A DNA stretch of 59,985 nt from sequence record OL539454.1; one strand, written 5' to 3'. The notes under the pieces were generated by a model. The model did no database searches and was not told where the DNA came from. It was given only the letters and a program-made list of their open reading frames with translations. The stretch is from Escherichia phage vB_EcoS_OddieOddie. A program made the translations under genes and the position numbers. Position 1 is the stretch's first letter. The number at the start of each line of letters is the position of its first letter. Of the stretch, positions 14,161-59,985 are shown one piece after another.

Positions 14161-14744
14161 TGCTATTCAGTCCTTTCAGCGATACGCTTCTTAATGCAAT
14201 GGAGCAGCCAAACGTTAGTCTTGTTCTTGCTGCGGAAATCGACTTTCCTTCTGGTGTAACGCGTGTACATACTGGGACAGGTGTTGTTGTTATTAACGGT
14301 CAAACGTTCCTGGGTGTTGGTACGCTTGGAGACGTAGGATCTGTAACAGAAGAAAACAGCACAAGCTCAAGCACAATGTCCATGGCGTTAAGCGGTCTGG
14401 ACATGAGTCTTGTCGGGGAAACGTTAAACGAAGAAGTTATCGGGCGCAATGTTGTTTGTTATATTGCGGTAATGAACGATCAAGGTAACGTTACCGCTGC
14501 CAATGTTTTATTTGAAGGTTTTATTACGGATACAGCGTTACAAGCAGGTCAACAGAATGCACTGAGTTATGTTATTTCCAACGTGTTTGAGCGTTGGTCA
14601 CAAGGTTTACCGGATCGCTATACGGATGAAAGTCAACAGCGTTTATATCCGGGCGACCGTTTCTTTAGATATATTGCACAAATGGCTGAACGTTCAATCT
14701 TTTGGGGGAGTAAAAAAGATGCGCCAGGGTTCTCCTATGAGTAA
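14160..14744 (+). CDS. minor tail protein (lambda L-like position)
   Basis: 194-aa ORF, translationally coupled to upstream gene; synteny only. Confidence 0.45.
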   Translation: MLFSPFSDTLLNAMEQPNVSLVLAAEIDFPSGVTRVHTGTGVVVINGQTFLGVGTLGDVGSVTEENSTSSSTMSMALSGLDMSLVGETLNEEVIGRNVVCYIAVMNDQGNVTAANVLFEGFITDTALQAGQQNALSYVISNVFERWSQGLPDRYTDESQQRLYPGDRFFRYIAQMAERSIFWGSKKDAPGFSYE

Positions 14745-15153
14745 GTTGCCAGGCTGGCAGACACGTTTATTAACCACAGTAAAGGAGTTGTCATCGACTC
14801 CTTTTTCTTGGGGTGAAAATGATTGCTGCACCTTCGCGGCAAAATGTGTTGATGCGCAATACGGAACAAATATCTACGAACAAGTCGCTGGAAAATATAG
14901 TACAGAGCTTGGAAGTAAAAAATTCACTATTGAAAGAGTTGGAACCGCTTACCTTCCATTGTTATTGGATACTTACCTCAGCGAACGCGTTGACAAGAAC
15001 TATGCGCAAAGAGGCGATGTGGTTACATTTGAGGGAGCATTGGGCTTAACTGCTGGCATATTATGGACTGGATATGTATGGGCTATGGGTCCGAACGGTG
15101 TGGAAACATTCCCGCTTAATAAGATCAAAATTACGGATATTTGGAGGGTCTAA
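14719..15153 (+). CDS. tail assembly protein (lambda K-like position)
   Basis: Longest ORF starts at 14569 but overlaps upstream gene; internal ATG at 14719 has SD GGGGAG; contains SWGENDCCTF cysteine motif. Confidence 0.4.
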   Translation: MRQGSPMSKLPGWQTRLLTTVKELSSTPFSWGENDCCTFAAKCVDAQYGTNIYEQVAGKYSTELGSKKFTIERVGTAYLPLLLDTYLSERVDKNYAQRGDVVTFEGALGLTAGILWTGYVWAMGPNGVETFPLNKIKITDIWRV

Positions 15154-18613: not shown

Positions 18614-21600
18614 GTGGGAGATATTATGGCAACTCGTTTACGTGGTACTTTAGTTGATGGTTTAAATAAACCAATTGTCAACGCTACAGTTGCACTTTTA
18701 GCGAAAGGGAATAGCTTATTGGTATTGTCCGGTAGTGAAGCTATCTTTAAAACAAGCGCAACCGGAACATATGATATTACAGTCCAAACAGGCTATTACA
18801 AGGTTATTATCGGTCCGCAAGGTAGCGAGCCTTATAAAGCTGGTGAAATTGCTATTTACGCGGACAGTAAAGAAGGTACGCTCAATAACTATTTAACTTC
18901 CTGGGCACCGGAAGAGCTAACTCCGGAAGTCATTGCACAGGTTAAAGATTTAGTTTCACAAGCTGAGACAGCTAAGAATGCTTCTGCTACATCTGCAACT
19001 AAATCCGAGCAAGAACGCGTTAAAGCAGAGACTGCGGCTCAGAATGCTGTAAACACTGCTAACGGTATGAAAGCTTCTATTGGTTTGACTACTGCACCAA
19101 GACATGTTGCAGATATTACAGTCAACCCGTCATCATTCTTGGGTTTTATACGGATTTTACGGTCTAGTACAGTAGGTTATCCGGATATTGCGTCCTCAGA
19201 AAACGTATTAGCCGGTTTTGTTTCCGCTATGGATGGAACCCCTGGATTTATAGGTGTTTTTGTTGGAGACATGACCGGGACTATATATAGCTATAGATGG
19301 ATCAAGGACGTTGGCGTTACATGGTGGAAGCAGGTTAACTATTCTACTGTCAACAGATATACCCAGCTAAACGCAGAAACTAATTTTACAAACCAATTAG
19401 GTAATGCAAAACTCCTCATAGATAATAATAAAGTTTGGGGGGCATATGACAATGAAAATAAACGCTTCATACCTCTAGCAATAGCTCAAGGTGGTACAGG
19501 GGCGCTCACAGACGCGGATGCTCGTACAAACTTAAGACTTGGTTCTAACGATACACCTCAATTCAGAAACCTTAATCTTGTTACAGTAGCAGACTCCGCA
19601 CAAGCGCCTTCCGGCATTGTGAGCGGTTATTTAAATAATAGCTCTGGAGTTCAAAGATGTCGCTACCGCATATATTCTGAAATAAGAGGCGACAATAAAG
19701 CGTGGTTAACCTTACACCTTCAATCAGACACAGCAACAAATAAATATGCTGGTCTAAGCGTTGATGGTAATTTTCAAATCAATGGAAATTTTATTGGTAA
19801 TGCTTTGCAGTTGTCAGACGCTCCAAATTCCAGGATTAATCTACAGTTAGATCGTTTTTATCAAAGTGCTAACGAAACGGTTATTTATACTCCGTCTCGT
19901 CAAGCATATATGACAATTTCTAATAACAAGACTTGGGGCGCTTATGACGCGGAAGCTCAAAACTTCATTCCTTTACCTATTAATAGGGGAGGGACTGGTG
20001 CCCTAACAATATCCGACGCTAAGACTAATCTTCAAATTCCGTCTGTAGGTGGGGGTGATTGGTTAACTTATAACGCTCCTCCTGGCGTGGAAGCTGGAAA
20101 GTATTATCCAGTTATCATCGATATGGCATACAGTTCTTTATATGCTTCTGGTGCTTTTATAGATATAAAGACACGTTCTGCCGCTGGTGACGACCCAATG
20201 AACTGTTGCACTTTTAACGGATTTATTAGATGTGGTGGTTGGAGCGACCGAAAAGACGGCGGTTATGGTTACTTCAACAACTATGCAAAAAATGAAATTG
20301 CTATGAAATGTATTCTTTCTTCATCTAAAGATGCGGAAAGATACGTTGCAATATATGTTGAAGGTCGTGGTTTCCCTCTTCAATTGCGTGTCCCTGCATT
20401 CTGTGAAGTAACAGTACCAACATCAAACTTTACTTATAAAAATACGACCTATGCGTGGGGTACAGCTAACCCTGCAACGGATTCTGTAGCTATAAACACC
20501 TTATTTGATTTTTCATTAAACCGCGTTGGTTTTTACCAGGCCACGACAGAAGGTAATTATTATATCGGAAATGGGGAACGTATTGTTTTATCTAACGGAA
20601 TGTCTGTGGGCGAAGAGTTAAGTCTAACCACACCTAAAGTGTCTTTCAGTGGAACCATTGCTGCTGGTAACGGTGTCATTGCAGATGGAACATCTGTATC
20701 CAATGCTACTTTTTATAGTCGTTATCGTGTTGGTGACGTGATATATGACAGCGAGTTTCGCGCAAGTGAAAATGCTGGTCAAATTATAGTCCGCGATCCA
20801 ACGGGTGGGACTGCGCATCAATTCTTTAACTTCAATCTCAACGGGACATTCAGCGCTCCCGCTGGTTTGCTATCTTCTACTGGAGTAGATTGGAACGGTC
20901 AGATTAATACCGTCAATAAATTCTATGGGATTGCTGGACAAGTTAACACACCAGAAAACAATGTGGTTTATGGTGGTATACATGTTGGATTCAGCGGCAA
21001 CTATGCTTTCCAGATATGCGGAAGGAAAGGTAAATCCTTCTTCCGCACATTTGAAGCAGGAGTAGAAGGACAATGGCAACAATTAGTAACTAAAGGGAAC
21101 TACGGAGTTGGTCTAATTGGAACTTTTAAACCGGAAGATGGTTCAAGTGGTTTTTACACTGATTCCGATGGGGCAAATACTTGGTCGCCCGCTAACGGAG
21201 GGGGTTTTCAATCTTCGTATACTCAGCAGCGAATATTCCAATTTTGGATGACATCAAGCTCGCAGGGGTTTATTCGTTTTAACGATAGCGGTAACGCTCA
21301 AGCTTCTAAGACGGATAAACCTTGGACAACACTTCAAGCAGCTGGCACATCGGATATTAATTTCAAGCGTGTTCACGGAGTGATGGATACAGATGTTGCA
21401 TTGGATAACATAAGCAAGCTTGAATTTGTATACTTTAACTATCTGTCCGATGGTCCAGAGCGTGAAATCCGTAGGGGTGTCATTGCTCAACAGGCCCAGG
21501 AAGTTGATCCTGAATATGTGCATAGTGCTGAAACATCCGGGAAAATGACTTTGGATTCTAACCCATTGTTATTGGATGCATTAGCTGCAATACAATCCCT

Positions 21601-21712
21601 CAAGAAAAAGGATCAAGATAATAAAGACCGTATTAGTAAACTTGAAACTGAAGTTGAGGAACTTAAGACGTTAGTTGCTACGCTTGTTAATAAAGAGCAA
21701 CCATTACCATAA
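18614..21712 (+). CDS. tail fibre protein with C-terminal intramolecular chaperone-like domain
   Basis: 1032-aa ORF; two internal copies of a WGAYD...FIPL...GGTGALT...A(R/K)TNL motif; C-terminus has SDINFKR ... GVIAQQAQEVDPEYV followed by coiled coil. Confidence 0.65.
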   Translation: MGDIMATRLRGTLVDGLNKPIVNATVALLAKGNSLLVLSGSEAIFKTSATGTYDITVQTGYYKVIIGPQGSEPYKAGEIAIYADSKEGTLNNYLTSWAPEELTPEVIAQVKDLVSQAETAKNASATSATKSEQERVKAETAAQNAVNTANGMKASIGLTTAPRHVADITVNPSSFLGFIRILRSSTVGYPDIASSENVLAGFVSAMDGTPGFIGVFVGDMTGTIYSYRWIKDVGVTWWKQVNYSTVNRYTQLNAETNFTNQLGNAKLLIDNNKVWGAYDNENKRFIPLAIAQGGTGALTDADARTNLRLGSNDTPQFRNLNLVTVADSAQAPSGIVSGYLNNSSGVQRCRYRIYSEIRGDNKAWLTLHLQSDTATNKYAGLSVDGNFQINGNFIGNALQLSDAPNSRINLQLDRFYQSANETVIYTPSRQAYMTISNNKTWGAYDAEAQNFIPLPINRGGTGALTISDAKTNLQIPSVGGGDWLTYNAPPGVEAGKYYPVIIDMAYSSLYASGAFIDIKTRSAAGDDPMNCCTFNGFIRCGGWSDRKDGGYGYFNNYAKNEIAMKCILSSSKDAERYVAIYVEGRGFPLQLRVPAFCEVTVPTSNFTYKNTTYAWGTANPATDSVAINTLFDFSLNRVGFYQATTEGNYYIGNGERIVLSNGMSVGEELSLTTPKVSFSGTIAAGNGVIADGTSVSNATFYSRYRVGDVIYDSEFRASENAGQIIVRDPTGGTAHQFFNFNLNGTFSAPAGLLSSTGVDWNGQINTVNKFYGIAGQVNTPENNVVYGGIHVGFSGNYAFQICGRKGKSFFRTFEAGVEGQWQQLVTKGNYGVGLIGTFKPEDGSSGFYTDSDGANTWSPANGGGFQSSYTQQRIFQFWMTSSSQGFIRFNDSGNAQASKTDKPWTTLQAAGTSDINFKRVHGVMDTDVALDNISKLEFVYFNYLSDGPEREIRRGVIAQQAQEVDPEYVHSAETSGKMTLDSNPLLLDALAAIQSLKKKDQDNKDRISKLETEVEELKTLVATLVNKEQPLP

Positions 21713-21729
21713 CCACATCTAACTTCAAC

Positions 21730-21754
21730 AGCGCGTCTTCGGGCGCGCTTTTTA
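21730..21754 (+). terminator. rho-independent terminator after tail fibre gene
   Basis: AGCGCG-TCTTCGGG-CGCGCT hairpin followed by TTTTTATT. Confidence 0.55.
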
Positions 21755-21808
21755 TTGGCTGTCAATCCCAATTTATAAAATCTTTACATATGGATCATTG
21801 TAAAAAGC

Positions 21809-22591
21809 ATGTTAAGGGGTATGCTTTACTTCGTAACCAGTTGGTTACATCCGCTTAACAAATCCATATATGGAGATTTTCCTATGTCTGACATGACTCT
21901 TTTACCTACTAATCTCGGTGGCGACGGTTTCGGTGGTGAAGCTGGTGCGGCTGGTATCGGTGGCGCGATCGGTGGTTTAATTGGTTCCTGGATCGGTAAT
22001 GGTTGGGGTGGCAATGGTGGTTGGGGTGGTCGCGGTAACTTCGCTGGTCCGGTAGAAGTGCAAGCTTCTGTTGACACCAACGCAATTCTGCAGGCTATCA
22101 ACAACGGTACTCTTCAGACCATTCAGGGGCAGAACGGTACTAACCTGACTGTTGAGCGCTCTGCTGCTTCTACCTATAACGGCATCACTCAGCAGAACAC
22201 TCAGAACCTGCTGGCTTCCGTTCAGGGCTTCGCTGGTCTGAACACGCAAATTCAGGGCGGCACCAGCCAAGTGCTCGCGGCTCTGTGTAGCAACGAAGCG
22301 GCTAACATTACCCGTTCTTTCCAGGCCCAGTTAGCAGCCGAGAAGTGTTGCTGCGAAACCAACCTGAACATCGAGCGTCAAGCTGAAGCTACCCGTGCGC
22401 TGATCCGTGACCAGCACGCACAGGCGCAAGCAGTTCTGATCTGTGACCTGAAATCTCAGTTGCAGGAAGCTCGCTTTGCAAACTCTCAGTTGGCACAAAC
22501 GGCTGGTCTTACTTGTAAGATCAATCAGGTTGAGCAGTTAGTTAACTTTAAACTGCCAACTCCTCCAACTCCTCCGACTGGCTGCTGCTAA
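21809..22591 (+). CDS. glycine-rich / glutamine-rich protein of unknown function
   Basis: 260-aa ORF (possible true start at 21884); Gly/Trp-rich block GGNGGWGGRG then Q/A/N/T-rich region, Cys cluster and C-terminal PTPPTPPTGCC; bounded by terminator-like hairpins. Confidence 0.45.
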   Translation: MLRGMLYFVTSWLHPLNKSIYGDFPMSDMTLLPTNLGGDGFGGEAGAAGIGGAIGGLIGSWIGNGWGGNGGWGGRGNFAGPVEVQASVDTNAILQAINNGTLQTIQGQNGTNLTVERSAASTYNGITQQNTQNLLASVQGFAGLNTQIQGGTSQVLAALCSNEAANITRSFQAQLAAEKCCCETNLNIERQAEATRALIRDQHAQAQAVLICDLKSQLQEARFANSQLAQTAGLTCKINQVEQLVNFKLPTPPTPPTGCC

Positions 22592-22613
22592 TCGTTGAAG
22601 TGTGGTTAAACTA

Positions 22614-22648
22614 AAGCGCCTTTCGCTCCTCCGCTTGGGGCGCTTTTA
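22614..22648 (+). terminator. possible terminator
   Basis: AAGCGCC ... GGCGCTT inverted repeat followed by TTTTAA; long loop, so weak. Confidence 0.3.
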
Positions 22649-22662
22649 ACAGAGGTACTATC

Positions 22663-23031
22663 ATGAGCCACATTAAATTCGCAACGATGGGAATGCCACG
22701 GGTCAAATTGCCTAAGGTTGCTTTACCTCGCATTAGCGTAGGTGAGCACCACCATGAGCATGAGAAAGAGGAATATAAACATGCTCACTCTTATGCTCGA
22801 GATCATGAACATATGGCAGCTATGTCAAATGTTCTTGACCGGATGGAAGAACCTCCGCATACGTGGGCGGCGTACCACGACAAGCCCGGCGGTATGATGT
22901 CCATTGTTGAAATGGAATACCGCGAATTAATGGAGTGTAAGAAAGAAGGCGACCGCGCAGGGATCATGAAAGAGTTGACTGATCTTGCCGCAGCTTGTAC
23001 TTGCGCTCTTCAAAAAATGAAAGATATGTAA
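22663..23031 (+). CDS. histidine-rich hypothetical protein
   Basis: 122-aa ORF with strong SD; His/Glu cluster VGEHHHEHEKEEYKHAHSYARDHEH. Confidence 0.45.
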   Translation: MSHIKFATMGMPRVKLPKVALPRISVGEHHHEHEKEEYKHAHSYARDHEHMAAMSNVLDRMEEPPHTWAAYHDKPGGMMSIVEMEYRELMECKKEGDRAGIMKELTDLAAACTCALQKMKDM

Positions 23032-23046
23032 GAATAGGAAGCCGAC

Positions 23047-23577
23047 ATGCAAAACGTAAACGCAGGAATGGGCGTAACCCAGTTCAACGGGATGAAACCG
23101 AAAAACTCCATCAACATGGGCGGTGTTGATTGGACGTTACGTCGGGACGCTACCGATTCAACTACCATGTTCCCACACCAGAAGGTTAGCTGGCTTAATG
23201 CTGGCTGTGAACCTATGGGTGATGGAAGGGTTCATTACTGTTGGATTATGGGAGTGATACCGCCTACGCCGGGCACTATCGAACGACCCGTGAATGTGAT
23301 GTATGTCGGCTTCCACCAGTTTAAAATCACGATCGCTCCAAACTCCATTAGTCAGTCTGATCTTGATCGTATGCACGTTTACGTCAGCGATGGTACAGAC
23401 TTTGCAGGTGATTTTATTAATAAGTTTCTTGGCGTGCAACCGGAGCAACCTGTAGAAGCCCGCGAACATATTAGTCCGTGGCCACCAATGATTGATCAGG
23501 AAGTGTTGCAGCCAAAGACCGCTCAAACGGTCCCTCAGAAACCGGAGCAGAAGGTAAAACCAAATGACGAAGAATGA
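23047..23577 (+). CDS. hypothetical protein
   Basis: 176-aa ORF in late arm. Confidence 0.45.
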   Translation: MQNVNAGMGVTQFNGMKPKNSINMGGVDWTLRRDATDSTTMFPHQKVSWLNAGCEPMGDGRVHYCWIMGVIPPTPGTIERPVNVMYVGFHQFKITIAPNSISQSDLDRMHVYVSDGTDFAGDFINKFLGVQPEQPVEAREHISPWPPMIDQEVLQPKTAQTVPQKPEQKVKPNDEE

Positions 23578-23848
23578 AGGTATTGATAACGTTGTTGAAG
23601 GACTTTCTATTCGTGCTCATGTTATAGTCGATGAAGGTCATGATCAACTTACTATTATGAAATCCGCATTCAGCGATTTCAAGTCGCTTGGAAACTTAAG
23701 CGGATTAATGACCGTGGTGTCAACCGGAAAATTAACCCAGCAGCAAATCAGTCTGGCTCAGCGTATTGCTGTTAAAGTTATTGCGGTACTTGGGATGATT
23801 GAAGCTGAAAAGCTCAGTTCCAAGCAGGATAACGAAAGCGACCTTTAA
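23564..23848 (+). CDS. hypothetical protein
   Basis: 94-aa ORF overlapping upstream stop. Confidence 0.4.
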   Translation: MTKNEGIDNVVEGLSIRAHVIVDEGHDQLTIMKSAFSDFKSLGNLSGLMTVVSTGKLTQQQISLAQRIAVKVIAVLGMIEAEKLSSKQDNESDL

Positions 23849-28849: not shown

Positions 28850-29769
28850 CAGAACAACTCCATTACACGATCACGGAATGTGCCGTCATGGGTAGCGTTA
28901 ATGTTTGCAGCAATTACACCATACGCCCATAAATTGAAGGCAGCACGTGATTCATAGATTGTTGATAAACGTTCGTAAGTGAAACCGTTTTGCTCAAGGT
29001 ATTTAAGGACAGCGTCTTGTTCAATTTCAGTTAATGTTGAAACATGCTTGCCAAAATGGTGGCGATCCGGTGACTTATCAGATACGCGCATTGGACCCCA
29101 CGGAGGAGTAACCACACTTCCAAACGCTGCCGCTTGAATCCAGGAGGAAGAGTCGCAGCTATACCACGGATAACGTTCCATAATGGTTGTGGACGTAATA
29201 CCAAACGCATGAAGTTTAATCTTAGCACGTCCGCTACCGTCGCAAATGTATTTGTCCCACATGCGGTCCAGCCAAGTTTTAAGCGTGTCCGTGGAACGCC
29301 CTACCATGCCCCCGATGGTGATATATTCGTAGTTCTTCATGTAGTATTCAAGATAGCGGAAGTCCTCCCCAAAGTGAAAGCAAGGTAACGGTTTAGCACC
29401 GCGTGCTTCCATTTCAAGTTGGTTACGGTAGGTTTGCAACGGATCACCAATACCATCGAGCACTGACGCCATTACTGCGCCATCTTCTACACGAAGGATG
29501 TCTTTGTTGCGCTTAATGTATTCGCAGTATTCAACAATATCAATGTGAGCACCCAAAGAGTGCGCGGAGAATGCACCGGAGTCGAGAAACACTTTAGCCC
29601 CGTCAGCACGCATCTGATCAACATACTTTTGACGTCCAACGTAGTGGTATGATTCCAAAATATGGGGCAGATTGCGCGTGATATTTTTCTCATGCTCGGA
29701 CAGCTTTTCATAACGCTGCTGGCCGGGCATATATCCGTTTGTGTAAACTGCTGCCATAAAAACGTTCAT
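28849..29769 (-). CDS. dpdA: tRNA-guanine transglycosylase-like DNA-modifying enzyme (DpdA-like)
   Basis: 306-aa ORF with TGT-like nucleophile motif VFLDSGAFS; located beside folE/queD/queC/queE. Confidence 0.6.
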   Translation of the reverse strand: MNVFMAAVYTNGYMPGQQRYEKLSEHEKNITRNLPHILESYHYVGRQKYVDQMRADGAKVFLDSGAFSAHSLGAHIDIVEYCEYIKRNKDILRVEDGAVMASVLDGIGDPLQTYRNQLEMEARGAKPLPCFHFGEDFRYLEYYMKNYEYITIGGMVGRSTDTLKTWLDRMWDKYICDGSGRAKIKLHAFGITSTTIMERYPWYSCDSSSWIQAAAFGSVVTPPWGPMRVSDKSPDRHHFGKHVSTLTEIEQDAVLKYLEQNGFTYERLSTIYESRAAFNLWAYGVIAANINATHDGTFRDRVMELF

Positions 29770-29999
29770 TTTTGGAACGGTCCTCCAAACTGATCAATTA
29801 GTTCTAAAGTACGCCACACTTCATTAAATGCTTCGTCCGCTCGATGTTTAGCGTCAATAAGCTGCTGCTTTAAGATATTTGTAGGCGCATCATTCTGTAT
29901 TGCAGAGCAAGCATCCGCAGTACCTGCTTTAAGCTTGTAGAATGCAGCTTCTAAAATTAATTGTCTTGACATATTTTCCCCAATGACTAAAAAGCCCAT
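29766..29999 (-). CDS. hypothetical protein
   Basis: 77-aa ORF between dpdA and folE. Confidence 0.4.
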   Translation of the reverse strand: MGFLVIGENMSRQLILEAAFYKLKAGTADACSAIQNDAPTNILKQQLIDAKHRADEAFNEVWRTLELIDQFGGPFQK

Positions 30000-30043
30000 A
30001 CCAGTATTATGACCGATATGGGCTTGATCTGTAAAGCTATCTA

Positions 30044-30658
30044 TTATTTACAAGCTTCAAGGAACTCACGGCGCCATTCTTTACCAATATCGCTACCATG
30101 CTCCAGTTCTGTAGCGCCACGGAACGCTTTAGTAATAGTAGAGCTGCCGCATACCTGCTTAACACCGCGCGACTCCATGCACATATGCTTGGCGTCAATA
30201 TAAACACATACAGCTTTCGGGTTTAAATGCTCCTGAATAGCGTCTGCAATCTGGTTAGTAAGACGTTCCTGAACTTGCAGTCGACGACTAAAAGCATCCA
30301 CAACGCGAGACAGCTTACTAAGCCCAACGATCTTCCCATTGGGAACATAACCCACAACAGCATGACCGATAATAGGAGCCATGTGATGCTCACAATGACT
30401 GTATACAGGAATATCACGGACAATGACCATTTCATTGGTGTTTTCCGCTCCGTCCTCAAAGGTCTTAAACAACCCAGCAATATCTACATCATAACCGCCG
30501 AACCACGTCTGGTATGCTTTAGCAACACGTTCAGGAGTCTCTTCCAACCCAGGACGGAGTTCTGTTGAACCTTCAATATTTAAAAGTAATGAACTAATGG
30601 CAATTTTTACAGTATCTTTACGCATGGTTTGCAGTTTCCTTGTTGTTAATGTGGTCAT
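30044..30658 (-). CDS. folE: GTP cyclohydrolase I
   Basis: 204-aa ORF with SHCEHHMAPI and VGLSKLSRVVDAFSRRLQVQERLT signature. Confidence 0.8.
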   Translation of the reverse strand: MTTLTTRKLQTMRKDTVKIAISSLLLNIEGSTELRPGLEETPERVAKAYQTWFGGYDVDIAGLFKTFEDGAENTNEMVIVRDIPVYSHCEHHMAPIIGHAVVGYVPNGKIVGLSKLSRVVDAFSRRLQVQERLTNQIADAIQEHLNPKAVCVYIDAKHMCMESRGVKQVCGSSTITKAFRGATELEHGSDIGKEWRREFLEACK

Positions 30659-30660
30659 AC

Positions 30661-31152
30661 TTACAGGCTATAGTTTACGTGACATTTCGAAGTTTCTTCG
30701 ATGGTGCATTCTACAAGTTGAACACCATGTTCGTCAAGCAGTTGCGGTCCAATTACTTCAACCATATATGCAGCTAGGTTTTCGGCGGTAGGGTTGAACG
30801 GTAAAGATACCAGCGAGTTGTCAAAGTCCCTTACATCGTGACCCGTAGCTTCGTCACAAAGTTCAAGATCAACCTGAAGAGCTTTAATCAAAGGATCTTC
30901 TTCCCAGTGTAGGAATTTATGATCCCAATTATCTTCCAACCACTGGCAGAGCGTAGTTTTAACCACACTAAAATCGATAACTCGCCCAACGTCGTCCAGC
31001 AAAATACTATTGATTTCTTGCGACCCTTTTTTCGGTGCAACCTTAAAGTGAAACTTATAGTTGTGACCATGAAGGTGACGACACTTACTTTCATGACCCA
31101 CAACACGGTGACCAGCGCAAATTTCATGTGAACGAATTACTGTATAACTCAT
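30661..31152 (-). CDS. queD: 6-carboxy-5,6,7,8-tetrahydropterin synthase
   Basis: 163-aa ORF with CAGHRVVGH...CRHLHGHNYKF (Cys-His-Gly-His zinc motif). Confidence 0.75.
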   Translation of the reverse strand: MSYTVIRSHEICAGHRVVGHESKCRHLHGHNYKFHFKVAPKKGSQEINSILLDDVGRVIDFSVVKTTLCQWLEDNWDHKFLHWEEDPLIKALQVDLELCDEATGHDVRDFDNSLVSLPFNPTAENLAAYMVEVIGPQLLDEHGVQLVECTIEETSKCHVNYSL

Positions 31153-31766
31153 TTTAATACCTCTTTAGACTGTTCAATTTCTAACGCACGTTGCGCCGAC
31201 GCAATAATGTCTTTTAAGTCTTCTACCAGACTTTTATGACCGCGTTCGCCCGGCCGCAACGCTTTTTTGATTAAATGCTGCAAAGCTGGGTTCGTTGTTT
31301 CCCAGGCGGTAAGAACATCATACACATCTACAACAATTGAAGCAACATGCCCGTCAATATCTTTACCGCGGATAAGGCGCTGGTATTTGGTCAGACGGTT
31401 ATCTTCAGGATAGCTCTGGTAACGTGCTTCTGGAACCGTCATTGCAATTTCCATCACTTCTTTAAACTCGTGCTCGGTTATCGGACCTTCGCTAGCTTGC
31501 TTGGCATAATCCTCCGCAACGATATATCGCCAAGATATAACTGAATCCCTTTCTAACGGTATTACGTTATCACAGGATTTTTTATACCAGTCCCATCCTT
31601 GCTTATGGTTTTTCTTAAGAGAACCGTCAGCTAATTGAACTTCAAACTGCTCGTTTTGAAGAAAAATGGGCATCCCTTTTCCATCATGTTTGTGCCAGAT
31701 TTTATTAAGATTATCTTTCATTTTTACGCTCTCGCTGTACGTGAATGAACTTCGTAAACAACCCAA
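31149..31766 (-). CDS. hypothetical protein inside deazaguanine cluster
   Basis: 205-aa ORF between queD and the transporter gene; no motif recognised. Confidence 0.45.
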   Translation of the reverse strand: MGCLRSSFTYSESVKMKDNLNKIWHKHDGKGMPIFLQNEQFEVQLADGSLKKNHKQGWDWYKKSCDNVIPLERDSVISWRYIVAEDYAKQASEGPITEHEFKEVMEIAMTVPEARYQSYPEDNRLTKYQRLIRGKDIDGHVASIVVDVYDVLTAWETTNPALQHLIKKALRPGERGHKSLVEDLKDIIASAQRALEIEQSKEVLK

Positions 31767-32203
31767 AGGATGGCAGATGCTGTGAACTTACTTAAGCTCA
31801 TTGCTACCATTGATCCCGGATTAACAATACCTATAATACTTAAGAACACAATGGAGTCAATCGGTACAGCTACCAAAGAGCTGATAAATACTCGTTGATG
31901 GAAAGGCTTCTTAGTAATCGTATACACCGCGTAATCCGCAAACTCACTAAGTGCAAATGACGCAACGGATGCAACTACAACCGCAGGATCTCCGAACACC
32001 CAGCTAAGAATGCAACCGACAATCATTGCAGGGATAACGCCTTTGCCAGCGTTACGCTGTGCGTAGTCACGCAGGACGAAGATAATACCTACGAAGAAAG
32101 CCATCATGGGTACTACGCCAAGCGGCGTGTTAAGCATTGGAAGATAGGAAAAGCCCAGGTTTACGAATGTAATTGCAGCCAGATAAGCAACGATAAATTT
32201 CAT
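31724..32203 (-). CDS. queuosine-precursor transporter-like membrane protein (YhhQ/DUF165-like)
   Basis: 159-aa polytopic membrane protein in the que cluster; composition resembles YhhQ family. Confidence 0.45.
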   Translation of the reverse strand: MKFIVAYLAAITFVNLGFSYLPMLNTPLGVVPMMAFFVGIIFVLRDYAQRNAGKGVIPAMIVGCILSWVFGDPAVVVASVASFALSEFADYAVYTITKKPFHQRVFISSLVAVPIDSIVFLSIIGIVNPGSMVAMSLSKFTASAILWVVYEVHSRTARA

Positions 32204-32323
32204 ACTTTTGTTCTCCAGTTTTAACAGCGTTATTCGCTGGTTGTTGGGTTTAAAAGCTTTAGTAGTATAGTTGGGTTACCGCACCCTAAACAATAAGCTA
32301 GCGGTGCGGTTTTCGCGGTAAGA

Positions 32324-33031
32324 TCAAGCTTTGCTAATAAATTCGCTGTACCCTTTAGCACGGAGTTTACACGCCGGGCATTCCCCGCAACCATATCCCC
32401 AGTCATGCAGAGTGCGACGAACGCCGTTATAACACGTATGGGACTGTTCAATTACTGTGGTCAAGAAACCAACCTTATCCGCCAGCTCAAACGTTTCTGC
32501 TTTATTTAAACGCATAAGCGGTGTAACAAAATGGATATCAGTTTCATATCCAACGTTTAATGTAGCTTCAAGGAGATCAACAAACTGCTGACGACAATCC
32601 GGATAACCGCTATAGTCTGTTTCACATACGCCTGTAACCACATATCGGGCTCCAACCTTCTGCGCATAAGCGTGCGCGGTTGTCAGAAAAAGAGCATTAC
32701 GGTTTGGCACAAAACTTGCCGGAAGGTTACTGTGCTGTTCGTGATGTTCGTTAACATCACCTTCGTTCCCGATCAAAGCGCTATTACCGATCTGTTTCAA
32801 AGCTGGTAATTCAAAGACAACAAACGGGACATTGTGCTCTTTACAAATTTGATTAGCACAAGCCAGCTCAATGTTATGACGTTGACCGTATGCAAAACCA
32901 ATAGCGTAAACTTTATCATAGTTATTAAGCGCAAGACCTAGGCAAGTCACGCTATCCTGGCCGCCAGACAGGACGACAACGGCGGAGTTATGATTTTTTA
33001 CAGGGAATACCAGTTTATCTAATTTATTCAT
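32324..33031 (-). CDS. queC: 7-cyano-7-deazaguanine synthase
   Basis: 235-aa ORF with PP-loop VVLSGGQDSVTC and C-terminal zinc site CGECPACKLR. Confidence 0.8.
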   Translation of the reverse strand: MNKLDKLVFPVKNHNSAVVVLSGGQDSVTCLGLALNNYDKVYAIGFAYGQRHNIELACANQICKEHNVPFVVFELPALKQIGNSALIGNEGDVNEHHEQHSNLPASFVPNRNALFLTTAHAYAQKVGARYVVTGVCETDYSGYPDCRQQFVDLLEATLNVGYETDIHFVTPLMRLNKAETFELADKVGFLTTVIEQSHTCYNGVRRTLHDWGYGCGECPACKLRAKGYSEFISKA

Positions 33032-33032
33032 T

Positions 33033-33230
33033 TTAGAAACCTTTAAGGCTAATATTAAGGTTAACGACTACTTGTTCAACTACATCTTCACAGGTCATCT
33101 GACGCTTGTGAATTTCAAGTTCCGAATATATTTTCTTTGAAGCTGCGCGACACAGGGCATCATTCAATTCGTCTTGCAGACGTTGAATCTTCTGCATAAG
33201 CAGTATAGTTTCTTCATTCATCTTCCACAC
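33033..33230 (-). CDS. hypothetical protein
   Basis: 65-aa ORF between queC and queE. Confidence 0.35.
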   Translation of the reverse strand: MWKMNEETILLMQKIQRLQDELNDALCRAASKKIYSELEIHKRQMTCEDVVEQVVVNLNISLKGF

Positions 33231-33426
33231 CTTTAATATGACAAGGGTTGATTGTTACATTTGACATTACAATTGGATGATTACGTGCTCCAATTGTACT
33301 AACGTGATTAATATCTAATTCTACATGCACACCCTGCATAGTAGCATGAGCAATTGCAGAATTAAGTTTTTCAACCAGCTCAGTGATCATTTCCTGATGC
33401 TGTTTCGCTTCTTCCAAAGTGATCAT
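33214..33426 (-). CDS. hypothetical protein
   Basis: 70-aa ORF between queC and queE. Confidence 0.35.
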   Translation of the reverse strand: MITLEEAKQHQEMITELVEKLNSAIAHATMQGVHVELDINHVSTIGARNHPIVMSNVTINPCHIKGVEDE

Positions 33427-33681
33427 TTAAACCTCCGTTAATGTTTGAGTCCAGTCTAAGCCTTCAAGGTCTACATCAGCTATTTCATCGTACTCGTAAG
33501 CTCCCGGATCTGCTGGCAGCCATCTATCAAATCGATGGCTGAGTTCTGGAGGAATTGCTTCATACCCCCAAACCTTCCCATCCTTGTCGGCTGCCAGATA
33601 ATCAACTCGACTTGGAACGGTTAAAGTGACACCACAAAAATTAACATCTTTAGTATGCACAACCTGACTTAACACACGCAT
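33427..33681 (-). CDS. hypothetical protein
   Basis: 84-aa acidic ORF, coupled to queE. Confidence 0.4.
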   Translation of the reverse strand: MRVLSQVVHTKDVNFCGVTLTVPSRVDYLAADKDGKVWGYEAIPPELSHRFDRWLPADPGAYEYDEIADVDLEGLDWTQTLTEV

Positions 33682-34388
33682 TATTCCACCCCGATATATT
33701 TGTGAACCTGAAGCTGCAACGTGTACCCGTGTTTCATACAGCTTTGGATAACGGCTTGGATGTTACTGTGGTTAAGATCTTCATCCTGCTCGTCCATTGG
33801 CTGTAAATATATCTTACCCTTGAACCCCTTCGGAGGTCTAGCGATAAATGGCGTAGCTTGATGATCTAATGCTTGAAGAGGTAAACCGTCTTCCACGTTT
33901 ACACAGCACGCTTTAAGTACATATTTAAATGCATTAGCGCGGTACAGCACAGAAGGATGAATCTTTGAAGTCTTAGGACTGCATACAATGACAGGTAGCT
34001 GGGAAAAGTTCTTAGGTAAAGGCATAGACCCATTAGTTTCGATTTGCACCAAATAGCCCCGCGATAACAGTTGTTCAATGAACGGGTTAATTTGCTGACG
34101 GAACGGTTCACCCCCAGTAATAACCACAAGTGAGGTGCTATTGCCTGATTCCAGCTTACGGCTTTCGATTAAACGCATGATATCAACAATGTGGTAAAGA
34201 GAACGACCAACAGTATAATCCGTGTCGCAGCCCGGGCATTGCAGGTTACATCCAGCAAGACGCACAAATACAGCAGGTTGGCCGCAGAACGGACCTTCAC
34301 CCTGAATGGTAGAGAATACCGAATGCACGTCTAAATACATATCGTTTTCTTTAGAACGAGACTCGGGAGCTTGTTGATTAATATCCAT
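33681..34388 (-). CDS. queE: 7-carboxy-7-deazaguanine synthase (radical SAM)
   Basis: 235-aa ORF with STIQGEGPFCGQPAVFVRLAGCNLQCPGCDTDY. Confidence 0.8.
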   Translation of the reverse strand: MDINQQAPESRSKENDMYLDVHSVFSTIQGEGPFCGQPAVFVRLAGCNLQCPGCDTDYTVGRSLYHIVDIMRLIESRKLESGNSTSLVVITGGEPFRQQINPFIEQLLSRGYLVQIETNGSMPLPKNFSQLPVIVCSPKTSKIHPSVLYRANAFKYVLKACCVNVEDGLPLQALDHQATPFIARPPKGFKGKIYLQPMDEQDEDLNHSNIQAVIQSCMKHGYTLQLQVHKYIGVE

Positions 34389-56848: not shown

Positions 56849-57055
56849 ATGGAAACTCCATTAGCTAAACAAATGATAGAGCGTGCGGATCGGGACGGTT
56901 TACCGGAACACCATGCTATGCGTCGAACTGCCCAAGTATTTGACGAAATCAGCGTTAAATATGCGATGGGTAAGAGCACGCCTAAAGATTTATTGGGTGC
57001 TTGGGCTCGCGCTCGACGCTGCTGGTGTAACTATACCGGAGAACCGCTTGTATGA
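56849..57055 (+). CDS. hypothetical early protein
   Basis: 68-aa ORF filling the gap between neighbours. Confidence 0.4.
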   Translation: METPLAKQMIERADRDGLPEHHAMRRTAQVFDEISVKYAMGKSTPKDLLGAWARARRCWCNYTGEPLV

Positions 57056-57474
57056 TAAAACACGTTAAACAGCCAACTTTAAATACATGCGTTTCTGCGT
57101 GTTTGGCAATGATCCTTAATAAACCTGTTGAGAAGGTCATTGAGGAATTTCATAGTCGTTATTATAACAACTGGGAAATCACTATCAGCGAATATTTGAC
57201 TAAAAACGGCGTCAAGCATCATTGTTCAGAAGGTGGTGGGCGTGAAACTTTGCATATGGGAGGTCTGTTCCTGTGCACAGTGCCAAGTCTTAATATTCCT
57301 GGCGCATTGCACCAGATTGTGATCGATATGACGGATCACAAGTTTATTGTGCACGATCCAATTAAAGGATGGGAAGGTAAAAAGTTCTATGTTGGTCCGG
57401 ATCAAGATCCTGAGGAACCTGGAGCTTTTATCATTCATACTTGGGTCAAAGACGTTGAAATCCTACCTTATTAA
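57052..57474 (+). CDS. papain-like cysteine peptidase, C39-like
   Basis: 140-aa ORF with N-terminal QPTLNTCVSACLAMIL resembling the C39 catalytic-Cys motif. Confidence 0.45.
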   Translation: MIKHVKQPTLNTCVSACLAMILNKPVEKVIEEFHSRYYNNWEITISEYLTKNGVKHHCSEGGGRETLHMGGLFLCTVPSLNIPGALHQIVIDMTDHKFIVHDPIKGWEGKKFYVGPDQDPEEPGAFIIHTWVKDVEILPY

Positions 57475-57536
57475 TTTTCTTGCTATCACATAACCCTTCA
57501 TTGTATTGTGTACCCATCGAATAAGAGGGGTACACA

Positions 57537-57722
57537 ATGACCAAACTATACGCCGGATTGTTTTTATTTGCGACGTTAATGTTCGCTGGGCTTTATACCT
57601 ATACAGTAGTCGAACAACCTTCCACGGTTATCCGAATCTTTGCAAGTACAGGGCTTTGCATCTGTCTTATTCTATTTGTTTTATGCATTGTTATTATCCA
57701 AGACCAAAGGAAAGTTAAATGA
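57537..57722 (+). CDS. small two-helix membrane protein
   Basis: 61-aa ORF with SD AGAGGGG; two hydrophobic helices and basic C-terminus. Confidence 0.45.
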   Translation: MTKLYAGLFLFATLMFAGLYTYTVVEQPSTVIRIFASTGLCICLILFVLCIVIIQDQRKVK

Positions 57723-58183
57723 CCACAATTGCGTTTGATGGAAAAGTATTAGCTGCGGACCGTGGCGTTATGCGCGGGGAAGCTGTGACTGCTTATAAGA
57801 AAGTTCATAGCGTGAATGGACATCGTGGACGGTTTTTACTGGGCTTGTGCGGTTTGACGGCATTTACCGATCAGGTGTTGCGTTATTTTAATAGCGCGGA
57901 ACCTGTTAAGTTCCCTGATATTAAACTTTACAGTAAAGATGATGATTACGGGCAAACTTGCGGTCTTGCTGTTACTCCGGAAGGCACTTGCCATTTTATT
58001 TATAATGATGGTACTTTGAGCGAACCCATGCTGGATGGATGGGGTTCGGAGGGTAGCGGTTGTGTGTTTGCCGCTGGTGCGTTGGCTGCTGGTGCGAGCG
58101 CAAGCGAAGCTATTGAGCTGGCTATTAAACATACTACATGCGCATTCCTGGGAGTTGACACAATATCGTTTGAGGGTTTTTAA
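57719..58183 (+). CDS. proteasome-beta/HslV-like Ntn-hydrolase candidate
   Basis: 154-aa ORF starting MTTIAFDGKVLAADRG, matching the N-terminal Thr signature of proteasome beta/HslV subunits; has GSEGSG glycine motif. Confidence 0.45.
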   Translation: MTTIAFDGKVLAADRGVMRGEAVTAYKKVHSVNGHRGRFLLGLCGLTAFTDQVLRYFNSAEPVKFPDIKLYSKDDDYGQTCGLAVTPEGTCHFIYNDGTLSEPMLDGWGSEGSGCVFAAGALAAGASASEAIELAIKHTTCAFLGVDTISFEGF

Positions 58184-58453
58184 ATGACTACATTCAGTCA
58201 CCTGATCCCACCTGCTTATATGAGCAAGGTAGTTGACCACGGGACGCATGTTGTAATTGGTGGCGAAATCTTTATCACAGATAACGAGGAAATCGCCATT
58301 GCAATTATTGACAGCACTCAGCCTGACTTTATGGTTATCCTGCAACACGAACCAGATCAGTTCACTTTTTACTCCAGTTACGGGGTCGACAAAGGTGGAC
58401 AAGATCTTGTTAAGTGGTACATTAACGAATGGTTTGAGCACTGTTCTATCTAG
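58184..58453 (+). CDS. hypothetical protein
   Basis: 89-aa ORF coupled to upstream gene. Confidence 0.4.
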   Translation: MTTFSHLIPPAYMSKVVDHGTHVVIGGEIFITDNEEIAIAIIDSTQPDFMVILQHEPDQFTFYSSYGVDKGGQDLVKWYINEWFEHCSI

Positions 58454-58526
58454 ATCAATTCTCCTTGCGCCGTATCAAGTTTCTCTGTTACCCTTCATGG
58501 GTTCATGTCAAGCGGAGGAACTCGAT

Positions 58527-58964
58527 ATGGCGCTTCAACCTCGTGGTATTCGTAACAACAATCCAGGAAATATTCGCTGGGGTGACAATTGGCAGGGTTT
58601 AGTACCTGTTGATAAACGAACCGATAAATCTTTTGCACAGTTTACGCAACCGATCTACGGTATTCGTGCTCTAGCTAAAGTCCTGACTAACTACACCAAA
58701 CGCGAAGGCTTACCCAATGTGGGTAAGAAAAATATTGATACTGTACGTGAAATTATCGCTCGCTGGGCACCGCCTAACGAAAACGATACGGAAGCGTATA
58801 TTCGCTCTGTTGCCAAAGCAATTGGTGTTGAACCTAACGATCCAATCAATGTCTTCGACAAGACGATAATGTCAGGTTTGGTAAAAGCAATCATTCGTCA
58901 TGAAAATGGCATGATGCCTTATACGGACGACGTAATTAACCGCGCTATTGCAATGGTACTTTAA
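58527..58964 (+). CDS. candidate endolysin (by position)
   Basis: ATG at 58527 with SD GGAGGA; conserved-looking RGIRNNNPGNIRWG motif; directly upstream of holin and spanin candidates; enzymatic class not identified. Confidence 0.35.
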   Translation: MALQPRGIRNNNPGNIRWGDNWQGLVPVDKRTDKSFAQFTQPIYGIRALAKVLTNYTKREGLPNVGKKNIDTVREIIARWAPPNENDTEAYIRSVAKAIGVEPNDPINVFDKTIMSGLVKAIIRHENGMMPYTDDVINRAIAMVL

Positions 58965-58967
58965 CTG

Positions 58968-59345
58968 ATGGGGCGTCAGCCCCTTTTTATTGGAGGGAAC
59001 ATGTTCAACTCATCGAACGAACATTGGGCAGTTCTAGCGGGGTTTGCGCTGATCTCCCTCATTGGGGGAGCTCTCGGTTACGTCATGCGTACAATTGACG
59101 CTGGTAAGAAGGTACGGATAAGCATTGCATGTCTTGAAGGTTTATCCGCCGCGTTCTTTGGCGTTATAATGTACGCGATCTACAGGGAGTTTAATATCAG
59201 CCTTTGGTTCGCTTTTGGCCTTGCTGGCCTATTCGCTTGGGCGGGTTCACGTGCTACGCTAAAAGCTCTAAAGTCGCTTCTAGCATCGCGGACAGGGATC
59301 AAACTCGACTCAGAGGACTGCAAACATGAAAATGATTCTAAATAA
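58968..59345 (+). CDS. holin-like membrane protein
   Basis: 125-aa ORF with about three hydrophobic helices and charged C-terminus. Confidence 0.45.
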   Translation: MGRQPLFIGGNMFNSSNEHWAVLAGFALISLIGGALGYVMRTIDAGKKVRISIACLEGLSAAFFGVIMYAIYREFNISLWFAFGLAGLFAWAGSRATLKALKSLLASRTGIKLDSEDCKHENDSK

Positions 59346-59802
59346 CTTCTTCAGTTTTATAAAAGCTAAGCCCCGTCTGTTTATCGAGTACCTGATGATC
59401 GGCGCGGTTGTGTTTTTATGCGGAGTGGCTGCTTACCTGTGGTCACAAAACGAGCTTAACAAATCAAATTTAAGCTTAGCTGAAGAACGTTTAACCGTTG
59501 TGGAGAAGGACAATGCTAAGCTGGGCGAAGCTGTTGTATTTCTTGCTGCACAAAGGGAGAAAGATACGGACTCTTTCAAGAAACTAACTTCTGCAATTCA
59601 GAACGAACAACATAACCACAAGTTGCTTCAGGACAAGTTGCAGACACTGGAGAAAAGCAATGCCGACGTCAAAGCTTATCTTAACGAGCGTATTCCTGAT
59701 GATTTGCGCAGGTTGCTCGACGCAGACTCAACCTCCTCCAGCCCCACAGATAGTGAAGGTAAGACTACCCGCACATCTACTGGTGGAATGTCGGGAAGTT
59801 GA
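59326..59802 (+). CDS. inner-membrane spanin (Rz-like)
   Basis: 158-aa ORF; N-terminal transmembrane helix followed by coiled-coil periplasmic region. Confidence 0.5.
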   Translation: MKMILNNFFSFIKAKPRLFIEYLMIGAVVFLCGVAAYLWSQNELNKSNLSLAEERLTVVEKDNAKLGEAVVFLAAQREKDTDSFKKLTSAIQNEQHNHKLLQDKLQTLEKSNADVKAYLNERIPDDLRRLLDADSTSSSPTDSEGKTTRTSTGGMSGS

Positions 59803-59965
59803 GAAAATTCCTTTGGTTTACACAAGAGATATTATCCGACGTTTACAGGATACAGAAACTGCTCTGACTGAATGTAAGCTAAGGGTTAAGGAAATCATAC
59901 GCTATGAAGCTGAAAATGTTTCGCTTGATTTTGTAGGATCAAGCAATTATATTCAGCCTAAATAG
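59660..59965 (+). CDS. outer-membrane lipoprotein spanin (Rz1-like), overlapping the Rz-like gene in another frame
   Basis: 101-aa ORF; signal peptide with lipobox-like ICAGC followed by proline-rich PPPAPQ. Confidence 0.5.
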   Translation: MPTSKLILTSVFLMICAGCSTQTQPPPAPQIVKVRLPAHLLVECREVEKIPLVYTRDIIRRLQDTETALTECKLRVKEIIRYEAENVSLDFVGSSNYIQPK

Positions 59966-59985
59966 CAATAAGAAGGGGAGCTTCC

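Follow-up and report, generated by a model that had tools for sequence, protein, structure and literature searches.

Positions 58527-59965 of the genome of Escherichia phage vB_EcoS_OddieOddie (OL539454.1), which was analysed over its full 59,985 nucleotides (nt) and is called here the window, hold four open reading frames (ORFs) that the ORF listing places, all on the + strand, in the order lysin, holin, Rz-like and Rz1-like (Table 1). The region is that of an earlier note, made from the sequence without database searches, which described it as a lysis cassette with the lysin first, then the holin and overlapped Rz/Rz1-type spanins, the outer one (o-spanin) being a lipoprotein. Profile matches support that description, and because each of the four ORFs has one (phrog_873, PF16083, phrog_5975 and PF23793), they can be taken as real genes and not as chance ORFs. 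The minus-strand ORFs of the region are short and without support. The first base of the window is that of the terS ATG and its end lies 20 nt past the Rz1 stop, so the window is an entire Seuratvirus genome, with terS first and the lysis cassette last. The phage is a Seuratvirus (Queuovirinae) coliphage, and the region is very probably the canonical endolysin-holin-spanin lysis cassette of Seuratvirus which, in this layout, comes last and directly upstream of terS.

Table 1. Features of the lysis cassette and of the distant region homologous to the lysis-suppression genes of phage CSP1
Feature	Coordinates	Strand	Basis or remark
Shine-Dalgarno GGAGG of endolysin	58514..58518	+	8 nt 5' of ATG; read from sequence
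Endolysin, 145 aa, globular Enc34-type (PHA02564) catalytic domain	58527..58964	+	
Terminator-like hairpin GGGGC-GTCA-GCCCC then TTTTTATT	58970..58991	+	Terminator scan; in the 36-nt endolysin-holin gap
Shine-Dalgarno GGAGGG of holin	58992..58997	+	3 nt before ATG 59001; kept in CSP1, WildeMaa, SA126VB and STP-SP5
Holin, 114 aa, LydA-type (Phage_holin_3_3)	59001..59345	+	PF16083, phrog_785, hydropathy
i-spanin (Rz / P2 LysB-like), 158 aa	59326..59802	+	phrog_5975, phrog_89, hydropathy
o-spanin (Rz1 / P2 LysC-like), 101 aa	59660..59965	+	+1 frame relative to Rz
Tail-fibre gene, CSP1_020 homologue	18614-21712	+	
Antiholin candidate, CSP1_021 homologue	21884-22591	+	
CSP1_022 homologue	22663-23031	+	

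The cassette is an ordinary one: its gene order and all four of its protein families were on record before, and in phage CSP1 proteins nearly identical to these have been investigated. The cassette DNA is 95-96% identical to that of Cronobacter/Escherichia phage CSP1, of the CSP1 mutant CSP1C and of a number of other coliphages, and about 90% identical to that of Seuratviruses of the BASEL collection such as WildeMaa. Compared with the CSP1 proteins, the endolysin is 97.9% identical (three amino acid (aa) differences from CSP1_091), the holin (CSP1_092) 100%, the inner-membrane spanin (i-spanin) 96.8% (five differences) and the o-spanin 100%. What is new here is limited to annotation corrections, concerning the o-spanin and the holin start, and to a conserved hairpin between the endolysin and holin genes. 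A literature search for an account of the Seurat lysis cassette gave nothing usable, Rfam found no RNA family over 57000-59985, and the defence-system profiles of PADLOC had no match in the region, the lysin included. Promoter-like and terminator-like elements were counted no more often in the scan than in shuffled controls.

The lysin was classified through PHROGs, a PDB sequence search and fold comparison. The profile search that the earlier note had proposed matches it to phrog_873 'endolysin' (E 3.1e-62), and phmmer against the PDB finds the Enc34 endolysin's catalytic domain (7Q47, E 5.3e-33, residues 5-130); the PDB search also gives the N-terminus of Gp29, a phage protein of 1295 aa (9vvp). 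The Enc34 domain has a 1.6 A crystal structure with an all-helical fold like the alpha-lobe of lysozyme, in which Glu131 is the proposed catalytic residue and conservation extends to Trp79 and Tyr95 (PMC8943055). In the phmmer alignment these three correspond to E126, W80 and Y91 of the lysin; the codon of the predicted catalytic Glu126 lies at 58902-58904, and W80 and Y91 complete the Enc34 signature. All three residues are invariant across a 43-sequence family alignment, as is the RG-RN-NPGNI motif, present in the lysin as RGIRNNNPGNIRWG (residues 6-19, nt 58542-58583). The lysin also shares the all-alpha fold of six helices that the Enc34 catalytic domain has. Others have shown this domain to be muralytic, and by analogy the protein here may be so too: the Enc34 domain acts on outer-membrane-permeabilised E. 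coli, P. aeruginosa and H. alvei, and for Enc34 ORF39deltaC the activity was measured as turbidity reduction (PMC8943055). The 145-aa protein is an endolysin of the Enc34/PHA02564 class, a class solved in 2021-22, assayed and widespread.

How widespread can be seen from the 4,566 database proteins that match at E <= 1e-5, and from the presence of the domain in 793 of 50,697 phage records. The family includes the endolysins of Nonagvirus, Chivirus, DMS3-like Pseudomonas phages, Redjac and Xanthomonas phage XAP3, and the domain is also found in the 16.5-kb record of Gluconobacter phage GC1, in Vibrio phage records of 13-15 kb and in a Microviridae record. The earlier note had called the lysin unclassified and possibly of an uncommon class, a view that cannot be kept for a clear member of a family with a solved structure, an assay and 793 phage records, the more so as close relatives already annotate the gene 'endolysin' and the 97.9%-identical CSP1 protein has been expressed with an identical holin (PMC13577005). 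The note's statement that no catalytic signature could be recognised by eye was fair; neither Pfam nor NCBIfam holds a model that matches the lysin, which explains why none was recognised. Proteins with RGIRNNNPGNI that lack a Pfam match and go under the names 'structural protein P5', 'virion protein' or 'capsid protein' are, when they adjoin a holin, Enc34-type endolysins. The lysin shows no detectable sequence similarity to the GH73 N-acetylglucosaminidases (T. maritima TM0633, FlgJ and C. difficile Ecd09610) or to GH23 lytic transglycosylases; unlike them it has no beta-lobe, the order of its core helices is permuted, and the structural scores fall within the range of unrelated helical proteins. 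A distant relationship to GH73/GH23 is possible, not membership.

The start of the endolysin gene is well conserved, since caagcGGAGGa and the ATG at 58527 are kept in WildeMaa, CSP1, STP-SP5, yong3 and SA126VB. A longer, 235-aa lysin ORF, beginning at TTG 58257 with a hydrophobic, lipobox-like N-terminal extension, was considered and rejected: it overlaps a conserved upstream gene (phrog_23528), and the extension is not conserved, being interrupted by stops in STP-SP5, yong3 and SA126VB and unrelated in the last of these.

The lysin ends at residue 145, right behind the catalytic domain, and lacks the two-helix C-terminal transmembrane domain (TMD) of the Enc34/M4Lys subtype. Nor was a signal peptide, a signal-arrest-release (SAR) domain or any TMD found within it, the maximum 19-residue Kyte-Doolittle hydropathy being 0.78. 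The 120 best-scoring homologues in a protein-database search are all 121-214 aa long, most of them about 135-150 aa. The lysin belongs to the globular subtype of the Enc34 class. It thereby differs from ORF39 of Hafnia phage Enc34 and M4Lys of Salmonella phage BSPM4, whose C-terminal two-helix TMD lets them lyse or poison cells without a holin (PMC8943055). With no TMD or hydrophobic stretch in or after its catalytic domain, the lysin is predicted to be cytoplasmic and holin-dependent, that is, it should be a soluble endolysin that needs a hole-forming holin. The gene order differs too: holin-endolysin-spanins in Enc34, endolysin-holin-spanins here. Because it is globular and free of a TMD, the protein could serve as a convenient scaffold for the enzymology of the Enc34 class.

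The holin matches PF16083 with 39.8 bits (gathering score 28.4) and phrog_785 'holin' with 4.8e-24. Its topology was read from hydropathy analysis alone, which gives three peaks, at about residues 9-29, 38-60 and 64-82 of the 114-aa form; the C-terminal tail is charged, with 6 basic and 5 acidic residues among the last 29. These features agree with the prediction of class I for the CSP1 holin (PMC13577005). The P1 LydA-type holins (PF16083, holin superfamily III) are likewise small, with three hydrophobic segments and a charged C-terminus. The open frame of the gene extends over 58968-59345 and could encode 125 aa from an upstream ATG, which is the form in the GenBank record of CSP1. We reject that start, as ATG 58968 has no Shine-Dalgarno sequence, lies inside the hairpin and reads ACG in WildeMaa and STP-SP5; judged from these features and from the GGAGGG that lies 3 nt before it, ATG 59001 is most likely the true start. 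With ATG 58968 rejected, a lambda-style dual-start holin/antiholin pair loses its support and is unlikely.

Relatives share the hairpin that lies between the endolysin gene and the holin gene. The GGGGC-N4-GCCCC stem and the T-run are kept in CSP1, WildeMaa, SA126VB, STP-SP5 and yong3, in the last case despite a different flanking intergenic sequence, and the loops vary among relatives (GTCA, GTTA, TTCG). The folding energy is unremarkable (z -1.37), and no covariation was found, the stem being invariant across the relatives examined. The record of SA126VB does not annotate it as a terminator, though it annotates terminators elsewhere. We offer, as a tentative and rather doubtful proposal drawn from its sequence and conservation, that the hairpin might act as a partial terminator or attenuator and so keep the amount of holin and spanin transcript in a fixed proportion to that of endolysin transcript. 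If true, it would help to set lysis timing transcriptionally, alongside the distant antiholin set described below. P2, too, has an annotated putative attenuator, located inside lysC. One fold paired CCCCUU with the Shine-Dalgarno sequence of the holin; this alternative was discarded, as it is not conserved in yong3 and STP-SP5 and is not the minimum free energy structure in a longer context.

The first 20 nt of the Rz-like gene lie within the end of the holin gene. Its product, the i-spanin, matches phrog_5975 (3.6e-54) and phrog_89 'Rz-like spanin' (2.4e-11), and has an N-terminal TMD at about residues 18-40 (hydropathy 2.25 over residues 16-41). A single-sequence AlphaFold2 model of modest confidence (pLDDT 71) puts residues 2-135 into helices, interrupted near residue 80, so that the long periplasmic domain is predicted to be largely helical; it ends in a low-confidence or disordered tail (residues 137-158) that is rich in Ser, Thr and Gly and is encoded within the Rz1 overlap. 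The protein has no periplasmic Cys, its sole Cys, C32, being in the TMD.

The Rz1-like gene begins inside the Rz-like gene, overlaps it by 143 nt and runs 163 nt past its stop, which is the overlapped architecture defined by Kongari et al. (2018). The o-spanin scores above the curated cutoffs of both PF23793 LysC (45.3 bits, cutoff 27) and NF038368 P2_Rz1 (29.2, cutoff 27), the matches to these models covering residues 8-85. The lipobox check suggested in the earlier note gave a signal peptide, MPTSKLILTSVFLMI, followed by a lipobox C-A-G-C (nt 59705-59716) that ends at C19 and has Ser at +2; Cys19 is predicted from this sequence to be lipidated, with no Lol-avoidance residue at +2. Beyond the lipobox are a Pro-rich linker and two periplasmic Cys, C44 and C72, which are kept in yong3, STP-SP5, Erebus and Bhz54 and are available for intermolecular disulfides. 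By tblastn, 33 phage records keep the ORF over its full length, Met1 included, and the protein is 39-45% identical in four distant relatives (Hafnia phage yong3, Aminobacter phage Erebus, and Stenotrophomonas and Pseudomonas phages). In yong3, Erebus and Bhz54, too, Rz1 starts inside Rz in this way. Where the two genes overlap, conservation is on the side of the Rz1 signal peptide and lipobox, and the Rz C-terminal tail varies among relatives, the pattern described for overlapped spanins (Kongari et al., 2018). In the Salmonella phage STP-SP5 (2501-2807) the o-spanin ORF ends after codon 86 and the last 16 residues are in another frame; a frameshift or a sequencing error may account for this break, or the o-spanin of STP-SP5 may truly be shorter.

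The prototype of the overlapped two-component spanin, LysB/LysC of P2, has the same architecture, with an overlap of 146 nt compared with 143 here. The o-spanin aligns with P2 LysC at 32% identity (E 4e-7); the lipobox of LysC is LMLCAGC, and LM(I/L)CAGC is common to both. P2 differs in gene order (holin Y, endolysin K, lysA, lysB, lysC) and in having another type of endolysin. In GenBank the o-spanin of WildeMaa is given as 61 aa from a late start, without the signal peptide, that of CSP1 as a 50-aa 'hypothetical protein', and nothing is annotated for it in yong3, STP-SP5, Erebus, Bhz54 and SA126VB. The 101-aa call of the earlier note improves on the GenBank annotation of every relative examined, and the Seuratvirus o-spanin should be annotated as a 101-codon ORF with a P2 LysC-type CAGC lipobox. 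As far as the spanin supplements of Kongari et al. (2018) were accessible, those portions had no entries for Seurat, CAjan or slur01 and no CAGCS lipobox string.

Some points weigh against the reading of the region as an endolysin-holin-spanin cassette of this kind. The activity of this exact lysin is carried over from homologues. As to the bond that is cleaved, Enc34 was inferred to be an N-acetylglucosaminidase from structure alone, and high-performance liquid chromatography of M4Lys products suggested glucosaminidase plus endopeptidase activity (PMC8943055). By analogy, the bare all-alpha domain may be a glucosaminidase only or may have a dual glycosidase/endopeptidase specificity like M4Lys. 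The characterised members of the family, Enc34 ORF39 and M4Lys, have the C-terminal TMD and lyse without a holin, and the mode of release proposed here is drawn from the missing TMD and from the CSP1 experiments. On the spanin side, the i-spanin scores 32.1 bits (E 1.2e-7) with TIGR03495 LysB, far from the equivalog cutoff of 92.75, and its BLASTP match to P2 LysB is a local C-terminal one of only 19 residues (E 0.021); it is LysB-like in architecture and distantly so in sequence, and is not a LysB equivalog. The o-spanin lipobox, with G at -1 and A at -2, has Cys at -3, outside the textbook consensus [LVI][ASTVI][GAS]C (Kongari et al., 2018); C-[AV]-[GS]-C-S is kept in four divergent homologues, those of yong3, Erebus, STP-SP5 and Bhz54.

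That the 145-aa protein is instead a peptidoglycan hydrolase of the virion, used for DNA entry, with the true endolysin encoded elsewhere, is suggested by the company its domain keeps. Many homologues bear structural names ('structural protein P5', 'virion protein', 'capsid protein'), and the domain is fused into large virion proteins: it is part of what several records of Kayfunavirus-like podophages name 'internal virion protein D' (those of Citrobacter phages CR8 and SH3 and of Shigella phage SFPH2, for example) and occurs in a 'tail injection transglycosylase', in PHROG families annotated tape-measure or head, and at the N-terminus of Gp29 (9vvp). However, the 'P5 / V virion protein' names derive from a provisional CDD label, PHA02564, and not from experiments (PMC7143992), and the lysin is a bare domain without a virion-attachment module that adjoins holin and spanins in the endolysin slot. 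That the position upstream of the holin is such a slot is indicated by the other enzymes that hold it in related cassettes: an L-Ala-D-Glu peptidase annotated endolysin in Bhz54 and a DUF3380 endolysin in Vid5, both of them cassettes with a Phage_holin_3_3 holin and LysB/LysC-type spanins as here; in Erebus the slot has a gene annotated merely 'metallopeptidase', followed by an unannotated ORF at the expected place of the holin. As for another gene that might provide the muralytic activity, which the earlier note had raised, tblastn and a family hidden Markov model run over all six frames of the window found no second Enc34-type domain, and the tape measure, the J-like protein, the tail fibre and two further tail-module ORFs contain no lytic Pfam domain; no other glycosidase-type lysin was found by these searches. 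The sole other peptidoglycan-related gene recognised is in the tail module (14719-15150, +); its product belongs to DUF6950 (E 2e-39), is faintly similar to NlpC/P60 and is 100% identical to that of a CSP1C gene annotated 'peptidoglycan endopeptidase'. It is probably a cell-wall peptidase that is associated with the virion and serves during entry, not the endolysin. The CSP1 study, too, treats the 97.9%-identical protein as the endolysin (PMC13577005). Taken together, these observations make a virion role very unlikely.

Equally improbable is that the lysin is exported or membrane-tethered without the holin, in the manner of M4Lys/Enc34 or of SAR endolysins, which would leave the holin as a depolarising pinholin only. 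Both biochemically characterised members of the family are indeed toxic or lytic without a holin through their C-terminal TMD (PMC8943055), but the lysin stops after the catalytic domain, has a polar N-terminus (MALQPRGIRNNN) and no hydrophobic stretch, and the upstream in-frame extension that would supply hydrophobic residues is not conserved and is interrupted by stops in relatives; the holin, moreover, has three TMDs like class I holins, not the two-TMD layout of a pinholin. The short (50 and 61 aa) or missing o-spanin annotations in GenBank relatives might mean that the 101-aa Rz1 ORF is no gene, or that merely a 3' part of 50-61 aa is real, and that the outer-membrane step is carried out by Rz alone or by something else. 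This we regard as extremely unlikely in view of the LysC and P2_Rz1 matches, the conservation from residue 1 in 33 records and in the four distant relatives, and the signal peptide and CAGC|S lipobox, which are the best-conserved part and common to P2 LysC; the short GenBank versions are without any signal sequence, and overlapped o-spanin genes are routinely missed by gene callers (Kongari et al., 2018).

If the region is an endolysin-holin-spanin cassette as we propose, lysis would proceed as follows. The endolysin, an all-alpha glycosidase of one domain whose predicted catalytic acid is Glu126, would be soluble and, as it has no export signal, would accumulate fully folded in the cytoplasm. 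The three-TMD LydA-type holin would build up in the inner membrane and trigger at a programmed time, and its holes, presumably large enough to free the endolysin into the periplasm, would allow the glycan strands of the peptidoglycan to be cleaved. The i-spanin would be anchored in the inner membrane by its N-terminal TMD and the o-spanin in the outer membrane through lipidated Cys19, together forming a P2 LysB/LysC-type complex that spans the periplasm and that, once the murein is gone, would fuse the two membranes to complete lysis. The homologues of CSP1_020-022, an antiholin set whose genes lie about 36 kb from the cassette, probably modulate the timing of the holin.

The involvement of the holin and endolysin in lysis has been demonstrated by others in CSP1, and may be carried over to the near-identical proteins here. 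The two CSP1 proteins were expressed and co-expressed in lysis experiments (J Microbiol 2025; PMC13577005). Overexpression of the holin broke lysis suppression, overexpression of the endolysin did not, and dinitrophenol, in a proton-motive-force-collapse experiment, triggered rapid lysis of suppressed cells (PMC13577005). The CSP1 holin bound the antiholin CSP1_021 in a two-hybrid assay, and CSP1_020-022, in the tail-fibre region, jointly suppress holin-dependent lysis and so make up the antiholin set (PMC13577005). The corresponding part of the window (21700-23600) is 98.6% identical to CSP1, and the ORFs and their sizes fit the description in the paper; we infer from this likeness that the genes of 18614..23031 would be distant regulators of the cassette here. 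There is some parallel with LydA/LydB of P1, as the CSP1 paper likewise reports a single-TMD antiholin partner (PMC13577005). Unlike in P1, however, the antiholin set is in the tail-fibre region and not beside the holin, and CSP1 needs three genes jointly.

A homologue of CSP1_023 is also present within 18614-23577 (+), and two copies of the 14-bp direct repeat GTGCAACCGGAACA, each with one mismatch, flank the region at 18756-18769 and 23434-23447. In CSP1 the 14-bp repeat mediated a 4,672-bp deletion that yielded the clear-plaque mutant CSP1C (PMC13577005). By analogy, the phage here may have the same turbid-plaque lysis suppression and the same route to deletion as CSP1/CSP1C.

Three genes upstream of the cassette, all on the + strand, were also noted. 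Two upstream of the endolysin is a gene (57719-58183) for a 154-aa HslV/proteasome-beta-like peptidase (phrog_1040, 5e-32; weak Pfam Proteasome match), whose N-terminus, MTTIAF, has Thr right behind Met. Its synteny is kept in yong3, STP-SP5 and SA126VB, with an HNH endonuclease inserted behind it in SA126VB; a tie between this gene and lysis control would be pure speculation. Its start is overlapped by the stop of a gene (57537-57722) for a 61-aa small membrane protein with two hydrophobic segments (phrog_22841, unknown function). The ORF at 57052-57474 encodes a 140-aa protein of phrog_4049 (unknown function), the N-terminus of which, KHVKQPTLNTCVSACLAMIL, bears a weak likeness to the region of C39-type peptidases that has the catalytic Cys (Pfam E 0.05, short of the cutoff).

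Elsewhere in the window, homology to the CSP1C annotation places a 7-deazaguanine (queuosine/archaeosine-type) DNA-modification cluster, typical of Queuovirinae, at about 29700-34000 (-). It comprises QueC, QueD, QueE, GTP cyclohydrolase I and a tRNA-guanine transglycosylase-like gene, and part of it is notably more divergent from CSP1C (82-92% identity) than the remaining genome.

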